Shown here: piece by piece, positions 46,538 to 55,627 of the stretch
Layout: each line of letters starts with the position of its first letter
Position numbering within the stretch: the first letter of the stretch is position 1
IMG/VR virus record: IMGVR_UViG_3300032083_002615
Coordinates: 5,452-69,451 of that record
Strand: one strand, 5' to 3'
Length of the DNA: 64,000 nt
Source: a virus
The notes under the pieces: generated by a model
What the model was told of the DNA's origin: nothing
The model's database searches: none
The model's input: the letters and a program-made list of their open reading frames with translations, nothing else
Translations under genes and position numbers: made by a program

Positions 46538-47626
46538 ATGAAAAAATTACTATCTATATTATTAACAACAGCTATCTTATTTGCTAATGAAGGTAGTAAT
46601 TACTTTGTAGATAACTTTTTAAAGTATTCTACATTCTATACAAGTGTAAGTTTAAATTCACCATTTGAACCAAAACAAAAATTTGACTTCAATCAAGACT
46701 TGGGAACATTTGTTGAAACAACAGAAGAAGTTGAGGGTTCATACAATGTTTCATTTGGTATAAGAAAACTTGCAAGGTTTAAATATCAAGCCAAAGGTAA
46801 GAACTTTTACGATGGTTCAGAAAAGAACTTATCAGATGTGGCTACAATTGGTAATGTGAGTGGTTGGGAATACTTGGTTAAGTACTCAGCTATTCGTTCT
46901 TTTGGTGAAGAGTTTGTAGATACAGAATCTTGGGTTAGATACTTAGGTGATAACTTTGTAATTAAAGGAACTTATGCTAACTTTGGATTAGAAGATTTAG
47001 AGTTTGGACAATTAGATGTTAGGTATAGAAAACCACTTGGAACAAGTTGGAACTTCACTGCAGGTGGTAACTTTAGAGGACACCCAGCATATGGATTGTT
47101 TCCATTTAATGATTGGTTACAAGGTTCACAAGGACAATGGTGGACATTAGCTTATGAGTATGGATATGATGATGAGTATTGGTTTGATGATTTAAACGAC
47201 AATGGTGTTCAAGACCCTGGTGAGTTTGGTAGTTATGAATGGTATAATGAAGATGGTGAATTAATTGCAGAAACCGATGATGAGTTTTATGAATACTATT
47301 ATGGTGATATAATAAATCTTTACAATGAAGAAGAAGTTGATAAACTTGGTTGGCAATATGAGGCTTCATTTGTTATTGGTGTTGATTATTATTTATACAA
47401 TAAACAATATTGGGTTCATGGTTGGGCTTCAATACTACCAATAAGTAAAGGACTTACGGATTATTCTTTCGTTTATGAAAGTGGTGATATAGATTTTGAT
47501 ATAGGTGTAGTGGCTGGATACAAATTTGATAAAAGTTTTGGTGTATTTGGTGAAGGAAGATATTTAAGATATTGGAGTATTGATTCCTATGAATTAAAAG
47601 TAGGATTGAATTACACAGTATTTTAG
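46538..47626 (+). CDS. Secreted outer-membrane beta-barrel-like protein
   Basis: Signal peptide MKKLLSILLTTAILFA; alternating aromatic strands; terminal GLNYTVF BAM-type signal; DLNDNGVQDPGE Ca-binding-like loop. Confidence 0.65.
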   Translation: MKKLLSILLTTAILFANEGSNYFVDNFLKYSTFYTSVSLNSPFEPKQKFDFNQDLGTFVETTEEVEGSYNVSFGIRKLARFKYQAKGKNFYDGSEKNLSDVATIGNVSGWEYLVKYSAIRSFGEEFVDTESWVRYLGDNFVIKGTYANFGLEDLEFGQLDVRYRKPLGTSWNFTAGGNFRGHPAYGLFPFNDWLQGSQGQWWTLAYEYGYDDEYWFDDLNDNGVQDPGEFGSYEWYNEDGELIAETDDEFYEYYYGDIINLYNEEEVDKLGWQYEASFVIGVDYYLYNKQYWVHGWASILPISKGLTDYSFVYESGDIDFDIGVVAGYKFDKSFGVFGEGRYLRYWSIDSYELKVGLNYTVF

Positions 47627-47635
47627 GAGTTATAG

Positions 47636-48307
47636 ATGAAAATAGGTGAAATATTAGTTCAAAAAGGATATGTAACACAACAACAATTAGATGGTGTGTT
47701 GGCTGTTAAAGGTGATGACGCACAAGTAGGACAAGTTTTAATCCAATGGGGATTATTAACACAAGAGCAGTTGATGGAAGCGTTGGACATACAAGCTCCC
47801 CCACCTCCACCGCCTCCTCCACCTCCACCACCAGTTCAACCACAACAACCAATGTATCAACAACCACCTGTTGCTCCACCTCCAAGTGCACCAGATTTGA
47901 CAATGGACAACTTACAAACATCAAAGTTTAACATTGATTTGAAAACTATGATTTACATTGGTTCAATATTGTTTTCAGCTGTAACGATGTATTTTACATT
48001 TATGGGTGAGTTAGATGCTAGATTTGGAGCATTAGAGGATGGTGACAATACAATGATGGTTGATATGGACAAAAGATTAACAGCATTGGAAACAAACATT
48101 GATAAAAGGGTAACAGAATTAGAAAACAAATTCACACCAATTGGTGATGGGGTTTATGCTGTAGACCCTAATTCATCTTGGCCACCATCTCGTGGTGAGT
48201 ATAAGATGAAAGATGAAATGTCAAGAAATAAAATTATGGCTTTAGAAAATGAAATAGATAGATTAGAAAAAACTATCGAAAAGTTAGAAGATAAGTTAGA
48301 TAAGTAG
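47636..48307 (+). CDS. MshEN-domain membrane protein (MshEN - polyPro linker - TM - coiled coil)
   Basis: Tandem KIGEILVQKGYVTQQQLDGVL / QVGQVLIQWGLLTQEQLMEALDIQ match the MshEN RLGxxLxxxGLxxxxxLxxxLxxQ pattern. Confidence 0.75.
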   Translation: MKIGEILVQKGYVTQQQLDGVLAVKGDDAQVGQVLIQWGLLTQEQLMEALDIQAPPPPPPPPPPPPVQPQQPMYQQPPVAPPPSAPDLTMDNLQTSKFNIDLKTMIYIGSILFSAVTMYFTFMGELDARFGALEDGDNTMMVDMDKRLTALETNIDKRVTELENKFTPIGDGVYAVDPNSSWPPSRGEYKMKDEMSRNKIMALENEIDRLEKTIEKLEDKLDK

Positions 48308-48316
48308 GAGAGGGTT

Positions 48317-48691
48317 ATGTTTAAAAAATTATTTATATTTGGTTTAATGATTACATCACTCTTTGGTGTAAGAGAATTAACAGATGAGAATTTCAAGAAA
48401 GCAACCAATAGAGGTTTAGTGGCCGTTGAGTTTTGGGCTACTTGGAATGAAGTGAATAAAGTTACAGCAATTGATGAATGGGATTCATTTGATGCGAAAG
48501 TATATAGATTGAACATTGATAATTTTCCAAAAATTCAAGCTGACAATAATGTAGTAATACTTCCCACTATAATCTTTTTTGATGAAGGTGAAGAAGTACA
48601 ACGACTTCAAGGTGATATGACTTTTACCTTAAAGACAACAACAGATGAACTTGACGAAGTAGTTGAGGAAATACTCGGAAATAAGTTTTAG
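48317..48691 (+). CDS. Exported thioredoxin-fold protein lacking CxxC
   Basis: Signal peptide; ELTDENF...VEFWATWNEVN (WCxxC position), LPTIIFF..GEEV.RLQG; contains no Cys. Confidence 0.8.
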   Translation: MFKKLFIFGLMITSLFGVRELTDENFKKATNRGLVAVEFWATWNEVNKVTAIDEWDSFDAKVYRLNIDNFPKIQADNNVVILPTIIFFDEGEEVQRLQGDMTFTLKTTTDELDEVVEEILGNKF

Positions 48692-48702
48692 GAGGAAATG
48701 AA

Positions 48703-49641
48703 ATGAATAAATTATTAATGTATTTAATGAGTTTTATGTTATTATTCACAATCAGTTGTGATGGTTCAAGTCCAACATCACCTGATGATGGTGGTAATGA
48801 TGACGAACCTGTATTACTTGGTTGTGAAGCAGCTAATCTATATGATTGGAATAGTGTAGAGTTTGAATCATCACTTGATGCAGGAGCAACAACTTGGTTA
48901 GCTTTTGATTTAAGTGAAACAACATTGTTCTCAATTAATTTAAATCAACCTGGTTTTCATTGTGCAATATTTGAAGCCTGTGATGGTGAGGTAGGAGCTC
49001 CACCACCATTGTATTCATTTATGTCAAATGGAAATGGACAAGAGGTTGGTATTGTAACAGAAGGAATTTATTATTTAGAAATAAAAAACACAAGACCTGG
49101 TAGATTAGATTTTGAATTTAGTATTCAATTGGATGATATAGTTTATGGTTGTATGAATGATGATGCTTTGAATTATGATGATACGGCTAATGTTGATGAT
49201 GGTAGTTGTACATTTAACGATTGTAATACACAATATTATTTAGATAACTATGGTGAGATGGTATTGGATTGTGATGGTAATTGTGCACCAATTAGTTGGA
49301 TAGCAGATGGATTCTGTGATGATGGAGCTTATGGTATTTATGATGAAGAAGGAAATGTAGTTCCTATTAATCTATGGTGTGAAGAGTTTAACTTTGACGA
49401 AGGTGATTGTGAAGTCATACCTGGTGAGTGTTCACCTGGATTGATTGAAGATTGTAATGGTATATGTGCACCTGAACAATGGTTGGGTGATGGTTTCTGT
49501 GATGATGGTTCATATTCTTATAATGGAAATCCAATATTCTTTAATTGTGAAGAATTTAACAATGATGAAGGAGATTGTGATGTTATGGGGAGGACAGAAA
49601 CAAGACCATATCCAAACAACAAAATTAAAATTAACGAATAG
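48703..49641 (+). CDS. Cys-rich lipoprotein with GC..ALNY...ANVDDGSC and LNR/Notch-like repeats
   Basis: Lipobox TISC; GCMNDDALNYDDTANVDDGSC; two DCxGxCAP..W..DGFCDDG...C.EFN.DEGDC repeats. Confidence 0.75.
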   Translation: MNKLLMYLMSFMLLFTISCDGSSPTSPDDGGNDDEPVLLGCEAANLYDWNSVEFESSLDAGATTWLAFDLSETTLFSINLNQPGFHCAIFEACDGEVGAPPPLYSFMSNGNGQEVGIVTEGIYYLEIKNTRPGRLDFEFSIQLDDIVYGCMNDDALNYDDTANVDDGSCTFNDCNTQYYLDNYGEMVLDCDGNCAPISWIADGFCDDGAYGIYDEEGNVVPINLWCEEFNFDEGDCEVIPGECSPGLIEDCNGICAPEQWLGDGFCDDGSYSYNGNPIFFNCEEFNNDEGDCDVMGRTETRPYPNNKIKINE

Positions 49642-49651
49642 TAGGAGATAA

Positions 49652-50212
49652 ATGTTAAAAGAGTTATTGCTAGCAACAATTGTATCAACATCACTAAGTG
49701 TAAGAACACCAAATGATGTAGAAAAAGAATTAGATTATGAGTTTTCTGTTAAAATTGAGAACACAAATAAAAATTTTCAATATTTATTAAAAAGAGATTG
49801 GGAAAGAGAATTAGGTGAAAAATACATAGATGATGTGTTTAAATTTTCACACACGATTAATGATTTTATTTATTATGGTGTGGATTATGTGAACAAAGAA
49901 TCAAAAGATATTTTTTACACAACTTATAACATTGGTATTGATGATAACGGATGGAAGTTTGGTTTATCAATAAAAGATAATGATAAGTTGGCTAGTTTAG
50001 GATACAATAAAAAATTAAAAAAAGATGATTTGGAATACAATGTAGGATTGTCTTTTAAATCTGATTTGGGTGAGAACAATATCATCAATCTAAAATCAGA
50101 AGTAAAGAAATGGCTAACAGAAAAGATTAATATATTTGGTTTATATAAACATGAGTATTACAATAAACAAGAAGACTTTCAATTTAAAGTCGGTTTAGGA
50201 GTTAAACTATGA
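49652..50212 (+). CDS. Small outer-membrane beta-barrel-like protein
   Basis: N-terminal hydrophobic leader; amphipathic strands; terminal FQFKVGLGVKL. Confidence 0.55.
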   Translation: MLKELLLATIVSTSLSVRTPNDVEKELDYEFSVKIENTNKNFQYLLKRDWERELGEKYIDDVFKFSHTINDFIYYGVDYVNKESKDIFYTTYNIGIDDNGWKFGLSIKDNDKLASLGYNKKLKKDDLEYNVGLSFKSDLGENNIINLKSEVKKWLTEKINIFGLYKHEYYNKQEDFQFKVGLGVKL

Positions 50213-50547
50213 AACTAACAAAAGAAACATTGAGAGAAATCATCAAAGAAGTGATTGCTGAAAATGATGGACATCCTCAGATTTTAAGAAAAAACAAAGA
50301 AGTTGCCCACAACTGAGCGACTCACATGGAGTGGAAGTCTTCCACTGATAAAGAAAAGTATGGTGATATGATTGGTGAAGTTATACACCACACATTATTT
50401 GAAGATGGAACTATTACAAAATACGATGTAAAGTTCGGAAATAAAACAATAAAAAACATCCCAACAGAAATGTTAGAGGTGGTGGAAATGAAAGAACATT
50501 CTCATAACCCAACTGAAGAGGATGAAGAGGAGAAAGACGATGAGTAA
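50209..50547 (+). CDS. Candidate selenoprotein (112 aa, in-frame TGA at codon 36, H-N-U-A-T-H), His-rich
   Basis: AGGAG SD at 50197-50201; ATGA overlap with the upstream stop; single TGA at 50314-50316 in frame with the tracked ORF 50326..50547; SECIS-like hairpin downstream. Confidence 0.7.
50330..50346 (+). promoter_or_regulatory. Putative bacterial SECIS element
   Basis: AGTGGAA-GTC-TTCCACT perfect 7-bp stem starting 14 nt after the TGA, with apical GU at +21/+22. Confidence 0.6.
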
Positions 50548-50602
50548 ATGCACATGTTGTGAAAATTGCAAATGTGAATGTAATTGTTGTGGAGATGAGT
50601 AG
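50540..50602 (+). CDS. 20-aa, 8-Cys metallothionein-like micropeptide MSKCTCCENCKCECNCCGDE
   Basis: AGGAG SD at 50528-50532; overlaps the upstream stop, and its TAG overlaps the downstream GTG at 50602, filling the gap exactly. Confidence 0.65.
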   Translation: MSKCTCCENCKCECNCCGDE

Positions 50603-51318
50603 TGATTAAATTAACATCATTATTAGTTGAACAAGAACAAGAAAACAAATATCCAGAGGATGCACCTAAACATTTTGGTGGTGGTGAGAACATTGATATA
50701 TTTGGTTATCAAACCAAACACTTTGATATTTGTAGGTCGGCTGTAACTTTGTATGAAAAGTTAAAAGAAAATGAAGAAGCAAAAGATTTAATCATTCAAA
50801 CAGCTAAAGATATGGACCATTTGTTTGAAATGGAAAAACAAGTTGTGGCTCAAGAACCAATGAACCACGACCCAATTGACCACGCCGTTAAATTGTGTAA
50901 TACGATTTCTTTTCAATTAGGTAGAATTGCAGAAATAACTGGACATGGTGAAGAAGAGGAAGATACACACTTCATTCAACTACATGTTAATGTAATCATT
51001 GATAGAGCTCAAAAACAAGAAATGACTAATGAAGATTTAAGAAAGTGGTTTAAAAAAGGTGGAACAGGTGGAACTACTGCTGGTGGTTGGGATAGATATA
51101 GTTCAACAGGTGAAAAACTTGGTAAATGTGGTGGTGGAAAAGAAGGTGAAGCATACGCTGCGTGTTTATCTGCAGCAAAAGCAGCAAAACTTGGAAAGAA
51201 AGGTATAGCGGCTTTTGTTAATAGAAAAAGAAGAGCACAGAAAAAAGGTGGTGACCCTAAAAAAGGTGGTGAGAGAAGAAAGGGACAAAAAACCATTAAG
51301 GTGAAAACAGGTGCGTAA
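50602..51318 (+). CDS. Probable internal head protein (MIKLTSLLVE leader; basic C-terminal module)
   Basis: Leader ending in LVE; EDLRKWF..GGWDR..GKC..AC basic module. Confidence 0.6.
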   Translation: MIKLTSLLVEQEQENKYPEDAPKHFGGGENIDIFGYQTKHFDICRSAVTLYEKLKENEEAKDLIIQTAKDMDHLFEMEKQVVAQEPMNHDPIDHAVKLCNTISFQLGRIAEITGHGEEEEDTHFIQLHVNVIIDRAQKQEMTNEDLRKWFKKGGTGGTTAGGWDRYSSTGEKLGKCGGGKEGEAYAACLSAAKAAKLGKKGIAAFVNRKRRAQKKGGDPKKGGERRKGQKTIKVKTGA

Positions 51319-52024
51319 AGCTTGTAATCCAAGAAGAAGAAAACCAGGTGAGAGTGAAGCTCAATATAGACAAAGATGTGGGCCAAGGCCATTAGGACAA
51401 ATTAAAATGGGTGAAAAAAAGAATCCAAGAATCCCAAGAAAAAAGGGACAACCAGCAGGTTCAAAGAAACATTCTGATTTATACACAGATGAAAACCCAA
51501 AAGGAACTATAAAAGGATTAAAGTTTGCAACTGTAAAAGATGCTAAGGCATCAGTCAGTAAAATTAAAGGTAGTGGTAAATCACATGCTCATAAGATTCA
51601 GGCTGCTGTTGCTATGGAACAAAGAGCAAGAGAGATGGGTAAAACATCTCAAGCAGCTGTTTATAGAGCATTCATCAATAAGATGAAAAAGATTACTAAA
51701 CAAAAAAATGAGGGTTGGAGTGAAAAATATAAAAAATCAATTGATTGTAACAACCCAAAAGGATTCAGTCAAAAAGCACATTGTACAGGAAAAAAGAAAA
51801 AATCGGAGAATGTAATGAAACTTACAAAGTCTAAATTAAGAGAAATGATTGAAGAAGAATACTTTAATTATCTTGTAGAAAAAAACGTACCAACAAATCC
51901 ATCTAAGTGGAGTTATTATAAATCACAAGCTAAAAAGAAGTTTGATGTATATCCATCGGCTTATGCAAATGCTTGGGCTGCTAAGATGTATAAAAAAGCT
52001 GGTGGTGGTTGGAAAAAGGGATAA
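51311..52024 (+). CDS. Highly basic modular protein (probable internal head protein)
   Basis: Modules RIPRKKGQPAGSKKHSDLYTDENPKGT, EGWSEKYKKSIDCNNPKGFSQKAHC and KKKFDVYPSAYAN.W..K.YK..GGGW, separated by xxE junctions. Confidence 0.6.
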   Translation: MRKACNPRRRKPGESEAQYRQRCGPRPLGQIKMGEKKNPRIPRKKGQPAGSKKHSDLYTDENPKGTIKGLKFATVKDAKASVSKIKGSGKSHAHKIQAAVAMEQRAREMGKTSQAAVYRAFINKMKKITKQKNEGWSEKYKKSIDCNNPKGFSQKAHCTGKKKKSENVMKLTKSKLREMIEEEYFNYLVEKNVPTNPSKWSYYKSQAKKKFDVYPSAYANAWAAKMYKKAGGGWKKG

Positions 52025-52026
52025 TT

Positions 52027-52449
52027 ATGAAAATCACAGAAAAAAGAGGAACTTGTTGGGTGGGATACAAACAAGTTGGTATGAAAGAAAAAGGTGGTAA
52101 AATGGTGCCTAATTGTGTTAAAGAAATTTACTATGAGGAAAATGGTAAAGGGTATGGGTACACGTTTGAATTTTATGGTGAGAATCTACAAGAGGCTGAA
52201 TACAAAGGTAGAAAAGTTAAACTTAATAAAATCATGCAAGGTGATAGAAAAAAGTTTAAGGTTTATGTAAAGAATGATAAAGGTAATGTTGTGGTGGTTC
52301 ATTTTGGACAAGGTGGTGATGCTAAGGGTGGAACGATGAGAATCAGAAAATCAAATCCAAAAGCTAGAAAATCATTTAGAGCACGACACAATTGTGATAA
52401 TCCAGGTCCTAAATACAAAGCTAGATATTGGGCGTGTAGAACATGGTAA
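52027..52449 (+). CDS. Basic modular protein (CWxGY...VPNCV plus ARKSFRARHNC modules)
   Basis: Start at ATG 52027; modules I recognise from hypothetical proteins of T4-like marine phages. Confidence 0.6.
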   Translation: MKITEKRGTCWVGYKQVGMKEKGGKMVPNCVKEIYYEENGKGYGYTFEFYGENLQEAEYKGRKVKLNKIMQGDRKKFKVYVKNDKGNVVVVHFGQGGDAKGGTMRIRKSNPKARKSFRARHNCDNPGPKYKARYWACRTW

Positions 52450-52607
52450 AATTAAAAAAATTATTAAACATTCAAGAGGGAAAGGCAGATAGAGCTTTTA
52501 CCAAAATCATTGGTTTATTAAGAAAAGAATCAAGAAAATTAAATGATGATGATTCATATGAGTTAAGCACTAAATTAAAGGCTTGGTTTAATAAAAATGT
52601 TATGTAA
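52443..52607 (+). CDS. 54-aa protein with MVKLKKLLNIQE leader, not in the ORF track
   Basis: Open frame filling the gap; same leader type as 45299 and 50602. Confidence 0.6.
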   Translation: MVKLKKLLNIQEGKADRAFTKIIGLLRKESRKLNDDDSYELSTKLKAWFNKNVM

Positions 52608-52642
52608 AAAAGCTTGTTTTTTTAATAAATAATTCGTAAATT
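52607..52642 (+). promoter_or_regulatory. Sigma70-like promoter (third copy of the AAAAAGCTTG class)
   Basis: AAAAAGCTTGTTT ... TTCGTAAATT. Confidence 0.55.
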
Positions 52643-52657
52643 ACATAGAGGTATATT

Positions 52658-55627
52658 TTGAACAAACTTGTAGAAGAAATAATTAAACCAATTTTAGAAG
52701 CCAATGGTATAAAAAAAGTCATTGGTATTTATGGTGGTAGATTTCAACCATTCGGGCCTCATCATTTAAAAACATATAAATGGTTACAATCCAAAGTTGA
52801 TGAAGCATACATCACAACATCCAATATAAAGAAACCCCCAAGACACCCAATGAACTTCAAAGAAAAAGTTAGACATATGTCAAAGATGGGTGTTCCTGCA
52901 AATCGTATCATTGAAGAAAAATCACCTTATGTTGCAAAAAATTTAGAGAAAAAATATGATAAAAATACTACAGCATTTGTTTATGTATTTGGAGCAAAAG
53001 ATGCTGGTAGATTAGGTGGTGGTGGAAAATACTTTCAAGATTATTTAAAAAACAAAAAGAATTTAAAGGGGTATGGTGAGAATGGATATTATTTAGTTGC
53101 ACCACATGTTTCCATATCAGTTGGTGGTAAGGAAGTTAGTGGAACAACAATGAGAGAATTACTTGGTTCAGACAAATATGATGATAAACAAAGAGTGAAG
53201 TTGTTTAAAAAGATGTTTGGTTATTATGACAAGGGTGTTTTCAATATGATGACTAACAAATTTAGTAAAATGTTTGAGGATACTATTCATACGACTTGGG
53301 ATAATACAAAACCAAAACCAAAAAATCCAAAACACTTTGATAAAAAAGACAAAGATTTATTATTTGATTTAGACTTACCAATTAAAGTTGGTGATACGAT
53401 TATGATGGGTAGATTTAAAAACAAAAAAGTAGTAATAAAAACCATTGACTTCAATGATAAAGGTGATTTGATGATTAACGGAAGACCAGCTTTAAAATTT
53501 AGAATTATTAAATCAAAAGAAATAGATGAGTTTTTAATCCATAATGATGTTAAAAAAATATTAGAGGTTTCAAATACTGGAACTGATGGTGTTCAAGGGG
53601 TGGATTCAGGTCCAAGTTTAATGTTTAAAAACTCAAATGATTATAAAGGTAGAGGTAATCAAGAAGCAGAAAAACTTGGTTGGACTGTAATTAATTATAT
53701 TTTACAAGGTGATATAGATAACTTACCACCAGATGAAAGTGAAATGTTAGATGGATGGCCATTAGGTCCTCACAATTCTGTTACATACTTACCAGCCGGT
53801 ATAGGAACAGGAGTTACACCAAATAACCAAGAAAATCTAACTGGTAAAAAAGGATATAATAAATGGTTAAGGGCTATGAGGACAAAAGCTGAAGAAGTTG
53901 GTATGCAATTAATGAAGTTTACCAAACAAGAAAGAGATATTAAAAAACAAATCGCTAAAGATACTGTGGATACAATTAAACAACAAAAAGAAGAAGAGAA
54001 AGAAAAAAAAGTAGATATTAAAGTTGAAGAAAATGTATTTACAAAAGATTGGTGGGATGATGTTTTAGTTGAAGTATCTGCAAAAACAAAAAAATTCAAA
54101 CAAAAGTTAATGAGAAGAGGTATCAAGATAAGATACGATAAAGCAAAAGCTCAACAAGACTTACAACAAAAATATGGTGGACAAGGTGAAGTTGTTGGAA
54201 AGAAATTTGGTTTGAGAAAAGCTTATTATGCAGTTCCTAAAAAAGGATTTAAGAAAGATACAAAACCAACACTTAAAATTACAAAAAAAGAAATAGATAA
54301 ATTACAAAAAGATAAAGTGTTGGATAAAGGTAATTTAAAAGTAGTATTTTCTGAATCTTGGTGGAAAGAAAAATTATTACTCAAAGAAGGTGGAGCATAC
54401 GGACATATGGCTCATCCATTTGACGACAAAGAATTAACATTCGGTGACTTGAAAAAAATTATTGAATTAGGATTAGGTGGACAATTGAATCGTGAAGATA
54501 ATGTTACAGAGAAACTTGATGGACAGAACATTATGGTTAGTTTCAAAGATGGAAAACTTATTGCAGCTAGAAACAAAGGACATATTAAAAATGGTGGTAA
54601 AACAGCATTGGATAAAAAAGGGATAGCGAGTAAGTTCAAAGGTAGAGGTGCTATAAGAAATGCTTTCGTTTATGCGATGAATGATTTAGAAAAAGCCATC
54701 AAGTCTTTATCAGATAAACAAAGAGATAAGATATTCAACAATGGATATAATTTTATGAATTTAGAAGTTATGTATCCATCATCTGCAAATGTAATTGATT
54801 ATGACATTACACAATTGATATTTCACGGAGCACTGAAATATGATGATAAGGGAAATGTTAAAGGCGAGGTATCAGGTAGTGGTAGAATACTTGCAGGTAT
54901 GATTCAACAAAGAAATCAAAACATACAAAAGAAATATTCAATTGGAAAACCTGTGTTTTTAGATGTTCCAAAACATCAAGACTTTGGTAAAATGAAAGAT
55001 AAGTTTTTAGGAAGATTAAGTAAATTAAAAGCTGAATATGGTTTAAAAGATAATGATACATTAGGATTGTATCACCAAATGTGGTGGGAACATAAAATAT
55101 ATCAAACATTTGGAAGTAGAAATTTAAGTGGGAAACTCACTCAAGGATTAGTTAAAAGATGGGCTTTCTTTGATAAATCATATTCAATATCTGATATAAA
55201 AAAAGATATGGAAAGATTCAGGTCAGCGAATCCAAAAAGAGAAGATGTTTTACAAGCAATATTAGATTTTGATAAAACGAATCATAAACAACAAGTGAAA
55301 AAAAATATGAAACCATTTGAAGAATTGTTCTTTGAAGTAGGAGCTGAGATATTGAAAAATGTAAAAGGATTCATATCAGCTAATCCAAAGAAATCAGTTC
55401 AAGGTATTGTAAAAAGATTAGATAAAGCTATATCAGTTGTAAAAAGTGGTGGTGATGTAAAAAAATTAAAAGTATTGAAACAACAATTAGATAAATTAAA
55501 TGCGATTGGTGGGACAAAAGCCATTGTTCCAAGTGAAGGTTTGGTGTTTAAATATAAAGGAAAGACTTATAAATTCACAGGTGCATTTGCACCAATAAAC
55601 CAAATCACAGGTTTAATTTATTTTTAG
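52658..55627 (+). CDS. Multidomain protein: N-terminal HIGH-type nucleotidylyltransferase plus C-terminal ligase-like (KxDG) domain
   Basis: IYGGRFQPFGPHH ... SGTTMR; GGAYGHMAHPFD, VTEKLDGQN, ARNKG, EGLVF, YKFTGAFAPINQI. Confidence 0.7.
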   Translation: MNKLVEEIIKPILEANGIKKVIGIYGGRFQPFGPHHLKTYKWLQSKVDEAYITTSNIKKPPRHPMNFKEKVRHMSKMGVPANRIIEEKSPYVAKNLEKKYDKNTTAFVYVFGAKDAGRLGGGGKYFQDYLKNKKNLKGYGENGYYLVAPHVSISVGGKEVSGTTMRELLGSDKYDDKQRVKLFKKMFGYYDKGVFNMMTNKFSKMFEDTIHTTWDNTKPKPKNPKHFDKKDKDLLFDLDLPIKVGDTIMMGRFKNKKVVIKTIDFNDKGDLMINGRPALKFRIIKSKEIDEFLIHNDVKKILEVSNTGTDGVQGVDSGPSLMFKNSNDYKGRGNQEAEKLGWTVINYILQGDIDNLPPDESEMLDGWPLGPHNSVTYLPAGIGTGVTPNNQENLTGKKGYNKWLRAMRTKAEEVGMQLMKFTKQERDIKKQIAKDTVDTIKQQKEEEKEKKVDIKVEENVFTKDWWDDVLVEVSAKTKKFKQKLMRRGIKIRYDKAKAQQDLQQKYGGQGEVVGKKFGLRKAYYAVPKKGFKKDTKPTLKITKKEIDKLQKDKVLDKGNLKVVFSESWWKEKLLLKEGGAYGHMAHPFDDKELTFGDLKKIIELGLGGQLNREDNVTEKLDGQNIMVSFKDGKLIAARNKGHIKNGGKTALDKKGIASKFKGRGAIRNAFVYAMNDLEKAIKSLSDKQRDKIFNNGYNFMNLEVMYPSSANVIDYDITQLIFHGALKYDDKGNVKGEVSGSGRILAGMIQQRNQNIQKKYSIGKPVFLDVPKHQDFGKMKDKFLGRLSKLKAEYGLKDNDTLGLYHQMWWEHKIYQTFGSRNLSGKLTQGLVKRWAFFDKSYSISDIKKDMERFRSANPKREDVLQAILDFDKTNHKQQVKKNMKPFEELFFEVGAEILKNVKGFISANPKKSVQGIVKRLDKAISVVKSGGDVKKLKVLKQQLDKLNAIGGTKAIVPSEGLVFKYKGKTYKFTGAFAPINQITGLIYF

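Follow-up and report, generated by a model that had tools for sequence, protein, structure and literature searches.

A micro-gene for an eight-cysteine peptide

A micro-gene of 20 codons was found in the genome of a T4-like marine phage, and its eight-thiol product, to judge from its sequence, quite possibly works like a miniature metallothionein. The window, i.e. the whole stretch of 64,000 nucleotides that was analyzed, belongs to an IMG/VR record of 69,451 bases (37% complete according to CheckV), is encoded entirely on the + strand and has a G+C content of about 30%. It harbors genes for a T4-type portal protein, large terminase, prohead protease, gp25-like and further baseplate wedge proteins and a primase, as well as a fused Mre11/Rad50-like protein and giant tail-fibre-like proteins. 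Because of these genes the DNA is assigned to a large tailed marine phage. The micro-ORF is located in a run of small genes without assigned function between the fibre genes and the terminase.

The micro-ORF (50540..50602, + strand) starts with ATG at 50540, comprises the 20 codons MSKCTCCENCKCECNCCGDE and ends with TAG at 50600-50602. Eight of the 20 residues (40%) are cysteines, arranged in the groups CxCC, CxCxC and CC with CC pairs at codons 6-7 and 16-17, and the calculated mass of the peptide is about 2.2 kDa. A Shine-Dalgarno sequence, AGGAG (50528..50532, + strand), precedes the ATG with a spacer of 7 nt and is embedded in the codons for the acidic tail of the upstream gene. The ATG is part of ATGAGTAA and thereby overlaps the stop TAA of the upstream frame at 50545-50547. 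At the other end, the final G of the TAG also opens the GTG at 50602, the start of a downstream gene of 238 codons (50602..51318, + strand); relatives have an ATG at this place. The downstream protein begins with MIKLTSLLVEQEQ, carries a basic, Gly/Lys-rich C-terminus and matches no Pfam or PHROG family, and homologues occur at 26 IMG/VR loci. A GGAG within codons 18-19 of the micro-ORF (Gly-Asp; 50591..50594, + strand) is positioned 7 nt 5' of the GTG and is likely the downstream gene's ribosome-binding site. This arrangement of AGGAG, ATG, eight cysteines and overlaps on both sides is the one described in the first-pass annotation and is borne out by the letters of the window. An alternative version of 26 codons starting at ATG 50522 lacks a Shine-Dalgarno sequence, and the corresponding position is not a start codon in two relatives (L221 and L222); for these reasons ATG 50540 is regarded as the common start.

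Cysteine accounts for only 123 of the 20,445 residues (0.60%) encoded by 47 + strand ORFs of the window, and at this frequency the binomial probability of at least eight cysteines among 19 residues is 1.2e-13. In all six frames of the window, just four stop-free stretches of 20 codons contain eight cysteines, all of them on the micro-ORF, and one contains seven. The pattern CxCxCxCC has a single match in the window and none in 100 shuffled versions. The composition of the micro-ORF is beyond chance. As a separate observation, the codon TGC is rare in this phage (2 of the 123 cysteine codons in the 47 ORFs), yet it makes up two of the eight cysteine codons of the micro-ORF, and 7 of 12 in a micro-ORF of a second family described below (L155). 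The excess of TGC may reflect a foreign origin or selection on decoding.

Distribution and junctions in related phages

IMG/VR was searched with the downstream protein, without use of the cysteine pattern, and this search provided the 26 loci. One of them (L001), whose downstream neighbour is 88% identical, contains MSNCKCCENCKCECDCCQGNHND followed by a stop codon at the same place. Another (L003; neighbour 57% identical) harbors a different Shine-Dalgarno-led micro-ORF, MCTCNCGCQCCNS plus stop, directly 5' of the homologous gene. It is preceded by an unrelated membrane-protein gene, and locus L192, obtained in a later search, is on the same contig. Loci L002, L004/L005 and L011 from this search have no micro-ORF. 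The upstream protein retrieved five loci on five contigs, among them the contig of L001; on the remaining four contigs (L027, L029, L030, L031) the upstream gene is present without the micro-ORF. Counting the window's own record, the micro-ORF is present in two of the six IMG/VR contigs with the upstream gene. A profile search with the upstream protein added no further IMG/VR loci.

A pattern fixing the eight cysteines, two D/E positions and one K/N position retrieved eight metagenome loci (seven distinct). Their peptides read MDKCKCCENCKCECECC(S/L)GHD; MSKCKCCEDCKCECNCCQGKYSD; MSKCKCCENCKCECDCCGDK; M(S/N)NCKCCENCKCECDCCQGHNND; and MSKCTCCENCKCECDCCQGHNND. Conservation of the cysteines in these eight loci is circular, since the pattern forced all of them together with the three charged positions. 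The resulting family comprises 10 loci (window, L001, L221-L228) with nine distinct sequences, and ATG, reading frame and stop are kept in all 10. M1, the eight cysteines, E8, K11 and E13 are invariant across the nine sequences, the cysteines, two D/E and one K/N positions being imposed by the pattern in the metagenome loci. As the family sequences are close (mean column identity 81-83%), statistical power is low. No frame other than the cysteine frame is both open and provided with a start codon at every family locus. GGAG is positioned 7 nt 5' of the ATG in nine of the 10 loci, and the remaining one (L224) has GAGG at 9 nt.

Both junctions vary. On the 5' side three forms occur: an overlap with the upstream gene through ATGAGTAA, an overlap through ATGAATAA, and a free-standing micro-ORF in L221 and L222, where the upstream stop is followed by a spacer of 14 or 10 nt that contains the GGAG. 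On the 3' side the forms are TAGTG, TAATG and (A/G)TGATTAA, followed by one of two different, unrelated downstream genes. The downstream start is an ATG at the same place in eight of the 10 loci and a GTG in the window and L223, and relatives have AAGGA or AGG at the matching position of the tail (QG, SG, LG, GD). The tails differ in length, so that the frame relation to the downstream gene varies between loci.

The Shine-Dalgarno sequence and the ORF behave as a single unit of insertion or deletion. Loci L027, L029 and L031 differ from L221 by a clean indel of spacer plus ORF, 72 nt as counted from the letters. In seawater data, one contig each in X13 and X15 joins 50537 to 50603 and lacks the micro-ORF; read on the letters of the window, this join recreates an overlap of both neighbouring genes, ATGATTAA. 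Contigs with an alternative QGHNND tail are also present in the seawater and estuary data. Absence from close relatives, which the first-pass annotation had named as evidence against the ORF, was literally found, but it takes the form of clean gain or loss of a cassette, with no decay seen. These comparisons indicate that the micro-gene is accessory, mobile and dispensable. Gain or loss of the cassette would barely disturb the operon, because both junctions keep translational coupling. The cassette is thus an example of how a micro-gene can be inserted or removed while coupling is spared, which bears on the evolution of phage operons and could serve as a design principle.

A minor observation concerns the end of the upstream gene, which reads ...SNCS, ...SHCS or ...GSCS before the stop in L221, L222, L027, L029 and L031, i.e. 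in front of the b-type downstream gene. In L221 the DNA of this ending shares 11 consecutive bases with the opening codons of the micro-ORF (MSNCK...) and may be the remnant of an older copy in the upstream frame. In that case, more than one gain or duplication of the cassette would have taken place.

Further poly-cysteine micro-ORFs and in-frame inserts

The pattern M-CxCxCxCxCC matched 65 loci in IMG/VR, of which seven (L155, L156, L164, L167, L205, L218 and L192) were kept; all seven are intergenic and have a Shine-Dalgarno-like site. The others were dropped: nearly all of them were located inside ORFs of at least 70 codons, mostly on the opposite strand, or in simple repeats. The repeat L163 and the ambiguous L217 are among those left out. 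A second family with the sequence MCKCDC(S/T/K)CCCCCDKCDCKC(IY)NG before the stop is represented by six loci in a different type of phage. Its micro-ORF overlaps both neighbours, through TAATG and ATGGCTAA, and is positioned directly 5' of genes that, from our reading of the sequences, are likely structural. A search with the downstream protein of this family returned only four contigs, none of them new. Shine-Dalgarno-led poly-cysteine micro-ORFs thus occur in three unrelated phage contexts (the families of the window, L155 and L003).

A scan of IMG/VR for CKCECxCC gave 21 loci, one of them on the L001 contig and two in frame inside proteins; the remaining matches were in other frames or on the opposite strand of long ORFs. 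The first in-frame case (L246) is a protein of 128 residues ending in ...KVW-CKCECSCCG-NDIDD, whose tandem paralogue (41% identical) ends in ...NFW-NDIDD. The second (L241) is a protein of the Hsp20 family (PF00011, E = 4.7e-8) with a cysteine-rich loop insert, CPQCEANGCDGCCKCECDCCKKE. The latter is encoded at 874-1512 of a 155-kb marine phage contig, and we note that it has a second cysteine-rich stretch, CGCGCSQGCLC, at its C-terminus. Two other scans were set aside. The full cysteine skeleton matched at least 122 stretches of IMG/VR, almost all of them simple TGY repeats or poly-cysteine frames, and was uninformative. A scan of genome contigs matched only Streptomyces (L229-L231), in unrelated cysteine-rich C-terminal tails of proteins with 400-520 residues. 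These bacterial tails are long runs of CxC and CC groups, e.g. ...CCDCCNCDCGCCDC.

Together, the three micro-ORF families and two fused forms point to a recurring class. It can be proposed, tentatively, that poly-cysteine mini-modules of the type CxCxCxCC form an undescribed class of mobile genetic elements that is widespread among ocean phages and is made up of Shine-Dalgarno-led micro-genes of 13-23 codons, placed between translationally coupled genes, and of in-frame inserts in proteins such as Hsp20. They would be the smallest gene-encoded metallothioneins known, would manage Zn, Cu or Cd or the thiol redox state in trace-metal-limited hosts, and would have been missed by gene finders.

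The fused forms also bear on roles at the protein level other than metal buffering. The peptide could be a Zn-stabilised knuckle that binds to a protein of the phage or the host and modulates it, in the way that small proteins act as partners of larger ones; it could also cross-link thiols and disulfides or be associated with the virion. An add-on module for interaction or stabilisation would suit the attachment of the motif to differing proteins, as a tail in L246 and as a loop in the Hsp20 protein of L241, and the place of the second family just 5' of the likely structural genes would also fit a role at the protein level. However, no partner is identifiable, the neighbours vary between loci, and a micro-ORF fused to either neighbour was never seen among the loci examined. 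A role of this kind is considered unlikely, if still worth keeping in mind.

Selection on the cysteine codons

Selection was assessed on cysteine codons that the search patterns did not force. L001 had been found through the neighbouring gene, and its comparison with the window reveals three changes in the eight cysteine codons, all of them synonymous exchanges of TGT and TGC and none non-synonymous. In the second family, the five pattern-free cysteine codons of L155 are all kept in L205, four of them with synonymous changes, while the flanks are identical at 181 of 197 (92%) and 182 of 234 (78%) positions. All unforced changes are thus synonymous, three of three in the window family and four of four in the second family.

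Variation within populations was examined in contigs of seawater or estuary origin, which came from three DNA runs and a single RNA library. Among the 40 differences listed, with 36 further ones beyond these, the only change inside 50540-50602 is 50551 C>T, which converts TGC to TGT and is synonymous; the flanks of the micro-ORF carry many differences in these contigs. Contigs from the RNA library also cover the micro-ORF, for which carry-over of DNA is possible. Syntenic small ORFs with conserved cysteines and a bias towards synonymous changes, the check suggested in the first-pass annotation, were found. On this comparative evidence the micro-gene is real and is kept by selection in uncultured ocean phages.

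It is, by contrast, very improbable that the cassette is a short, self-propagating or neutral insertion without function, in which the frame is open by chance. Such an element would fit the finding that close relatives, and also members of seawater populations, differ in whether they have the cassette, and it would likewise fit the short, compositionally simple sequence and an 8-nt direct repeat, GATGAGTA, whose two copies (50539-50546 and 50594-50601, + strand, as read from the letters) bracket the micro-ORF in the window. This repeat is not general, being absent from relatives with the QGHNND tail. The synonymous nature of all unforced cysteine-codon changes is at odds with neutrality, and all 10 loci retain the start, the Shine-Dalgarno spacing and the stop over different junctions. 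The recurrence of such micro-ORFs in three unrelated phage contexts also speaks against it, and no frameshifted or degraded copy was seen among the loci examined.

The upstream gene

The upstream reading frame (50209..50547, + strand) consists of 35 and 76 codons split by an in-frame TGA, the position of which is corrected here to 50314-50316; its stop overlaps the start of the micro-ORF. The context HN-TGA-(A/S)TH was present in 17 of the 17 rows examined, and the three codons after the TGA show only synonymous changes at the third position or an exchange of Ala to Ser. In L221 and L222 no start codon follows directly after the TGA, as GTA takes the place at which others have ATG. For this reason the TGA is probably read through, and the product would be a single protein with about 112 residues. 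No other internal TGA of this kind occurs in the window. An Rfam search of 49500-52700 identified no SECIS element or other family above noise, and a hairpin located 17 nt 3' of the TGA (7 bp with one compensatory pair) is not significant (z = 0.14).

The micro-peptide had been proposed to form a joint metal/redox module with the putative selenoprotein encoded by this gene. This part of the first-pass annotation is not supported, because the micro-ORF comes and goes independently of the upstream gene: four of the six IMG/VR contigs with the upstream gene lack it, as do the seawater contigs with the 50537 to 50603 join. Moreover, the similar micro-ORF of L003/L192 follows an unrelated membrane-protein gene, and the motif also occurs inside unrelated proteins. 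A nearby thioredoxin-like gene has no CxxC and encodes WATWNEV at the expected active site, where WCGPC would presumably stand.

Metallothionein-like properties of the peptide

Metallothioneins are small, cysteine-rich proteins that bind metal ions in metal-thiolate clusters and have CxC, CC, CxxC or CxCC groups and few or no aromatic or histidine residues. The window peptide combines a low mass with a very high cysteine content (20 residues, eight cysteines), and its cysteines are grouped as CxCC and CxCxCxCC without any histidine or aromatic residue. Some relatives have His or Tyr in the variable tail (QGHNND, QGKYSD), and tails of the second family contain Ile-Tyr. Searches against curated collections were negative. 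Four micro-peptides matched no family in Pfam, including its metallothionein models, and nothing in NCBIfam or among the PDB sequences at E values up to 10, with HMMER filters that discard most weak, compositionally biased matches. Likewise, tblastn with the peptide against 50,697 isolate phage records produced no match at E values up to 10 with the low-complexity filter on. As the descriptive definition fits and the curated models gave no match, the peptide is described as one that would work like a metallothionein and not as a member of a known family. The real gene, the translationally coupled arrangement and the metallothionein-like composition put forward in the first-pass annotation are all upheld in this form.

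For the metallothionein-like function, the likeliest of the readings considered, the following course is envisaged. Ribosomes would reach the micro-ORF from the upstream gene or initiate at the micro-ORF's own Shine-Dalgarno sequence. The peptide would then wrap soft metals such as Zn, Cd or Cu(I) into a metal-thiolate cluster and would buffer, store or hand over metal in the infected cell; alternatively, it would act as a thiol or redox buffer. Pfam and PHROG scans detected no metal transporter, metal regulator or thiol enzyme encoded in the window. A RiPP maturase (radical SAM, YcaO, lanthionine synthetase or similar) was likewise found neither among the 49 window ORFs with Pfam nor in the PHROG scans.

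The residues between the cysteines were compared across the three independent micro-ORF families. None of 17 is hydrophobic or aromatic (six in the window, seven in L155, four in L003), which has a probability of 1.3e-3 if the frequency of the proteome (0.32) is taken as reference and of 1.3e-4 if base composition is. These polar-only spacers and the in-frame CKCECxCC inserts favour a function of the peptide over one that acts purely at the level of codons.

The shortest fungal Cu-thioneins, such as that of Neurospora crassa, have about 25-26 residues and seven cysteines. They share with the micro-peptide the very small size, a cysteine content of about 30-40%, CxC and CC groups, polar or small spacers and an aromatic-free core. 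Unlike them, the micro-gene has a mere 20 codons, is phage-encoded and unannotated, and forms a coupled cassette inside an operon; it has no Pfam metallothionein match and no metal-responsive regulator nearby. The bacterial metallothioneins SmtA/BmtA and mycobacterial MymT have about 50-55 residues, and SmtA possesses a zinc-finger-like fold with histidine ligands and a repressor of the ArsR/SmtB type. These are cysteine-rich, metal-binding products of the prokaryotic world, as the micro-peptide would be, but neither their size nor the fold, histidine ligands and repressor of SmtA were seen for the micro-gene.

In the literature, judged by titles and abstracts, no description of phage-encoded cysteine-rich micropeptides or phage metallothioneins was found. 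Should the peptides bind metal, no smaller metallothionein-like product made by ribosomes would exist, and phages would have a new auxiliary function, the management of metals or thiols during infection in waters with scarce or toxic Zn, Cd and Cu. ORFs as short as these are skipped by gene callers, so that a whole layer of phage coding may be invisible. The isolate phages contain no counterpart of the downstream 238-residue protein, and the locus of the second family has only a 72-base match there, to the DNA polymerase gene of a Clostridioides phage; for lack of such counterparts, no cultured system is in sight.

Cysteine codons as a possible supply sensor

Conservation of the cysteine codons is equally expected if the codons and not the peptide are functional. 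In such a device, the run of cysteine codons would sense charged tRNA-Cys, i.e. the supply of reduced sulfur in the host, and the peptide would be irrelevant. When cysteine is scarce, ribosomes would stall at codons 16-17 and cover the downstream GGAG and GTG, thus blocking termination-reinitiation, and the downstream genes would be made only in well-supplied cells. The layout is compatible with this: the stop overlaps the downstream start, and the ribosome-binding site in codons 18-19 can be reached by a ribosome stalled at codons 16-17. Cysteine codons are otherwise very rare in the phage (0.60%), and those of the micro-ORF are conserved.

There is also a bacterial precedent. According to a study on mycobacteria (10.1101/834739), polycysteine sORFs are leaderless first ORFs that serve as cysteine-responsive attenuators 5' of cysteine and sulfur genes and act by freeing a sequestered ribosome-binding site, two consecutive cysteine codons being enough for the response; the micro-ORF has two CC pairs. 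Both systems involve a short unannotated ORF with consecutive cysteine codons directly 5' of operonic genes (10.1101/834739). Unlike the mycobacterial sORFs described there (10.1101/834739), however, the micro-ORF is Shine-Dalgarno-led and located in the middle of an operon instead of being the leaderless first ORF of a transcript, it shows no significant structure, and the genes downstream are unrelated to sulfur metabolism.

Several results for the phage loci also argue against a sensor. The RNA fold of 50510-50640 is not significant (z = -1.42; 13 of 200 shuffled sequences fold equally well), and its predicted stem lies within the micro-ORF and off the downstream GGAG. No terminator or promoter was detected nearby beyond chance. 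The downstream genes have no link to sulfur or cysteine, are not cysteine-rich (1.7%) and differ between loci, and relatives have the same downstream gene without the micro-ORF. The polar-only spacers would be left unexplained, and a sensor of the leader type cannot account for the in-frame protein inserts. A sensor is considered rather improbable on these grounds; if it did exist, phages would have their first case of a coupled short ORF that senses an amino acid.

Other features of the window

Three genes in a row were noticed at 46538-48691. The first encodes a protein of 362 residues with a signal-peptide-like start and the C-terminal sequence ...NYTVF, which looks like an outer-membrane barrel. 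The product of the second has 223 residues, a poly-Pro stretch and the appearance of a coiled coil, and the third encodes an exported thioredoxin-fold protein (PF00085, 9e-9), the one with WATWNEV instead of CxxC. At 50209-52607 and in L192, successive small genes and internal segments share a type of N-terminal motif, i.e. MKLTKETLREII, MIKLTSLL, MKLTKSKLREMI (inside 51311-52024) and MVKLKKLL. Their domains resemble parts of large phage proteins with several domains (phrog_764 'cytidyltransferase', phrog_22379 and phrog_11470), as if modules had been shuffled here that other phages carry in fused form. Finally, a phage ORF at 619-1782 of the window matches the Druantia defence protein DruA (PF14236, 1.7e-21).
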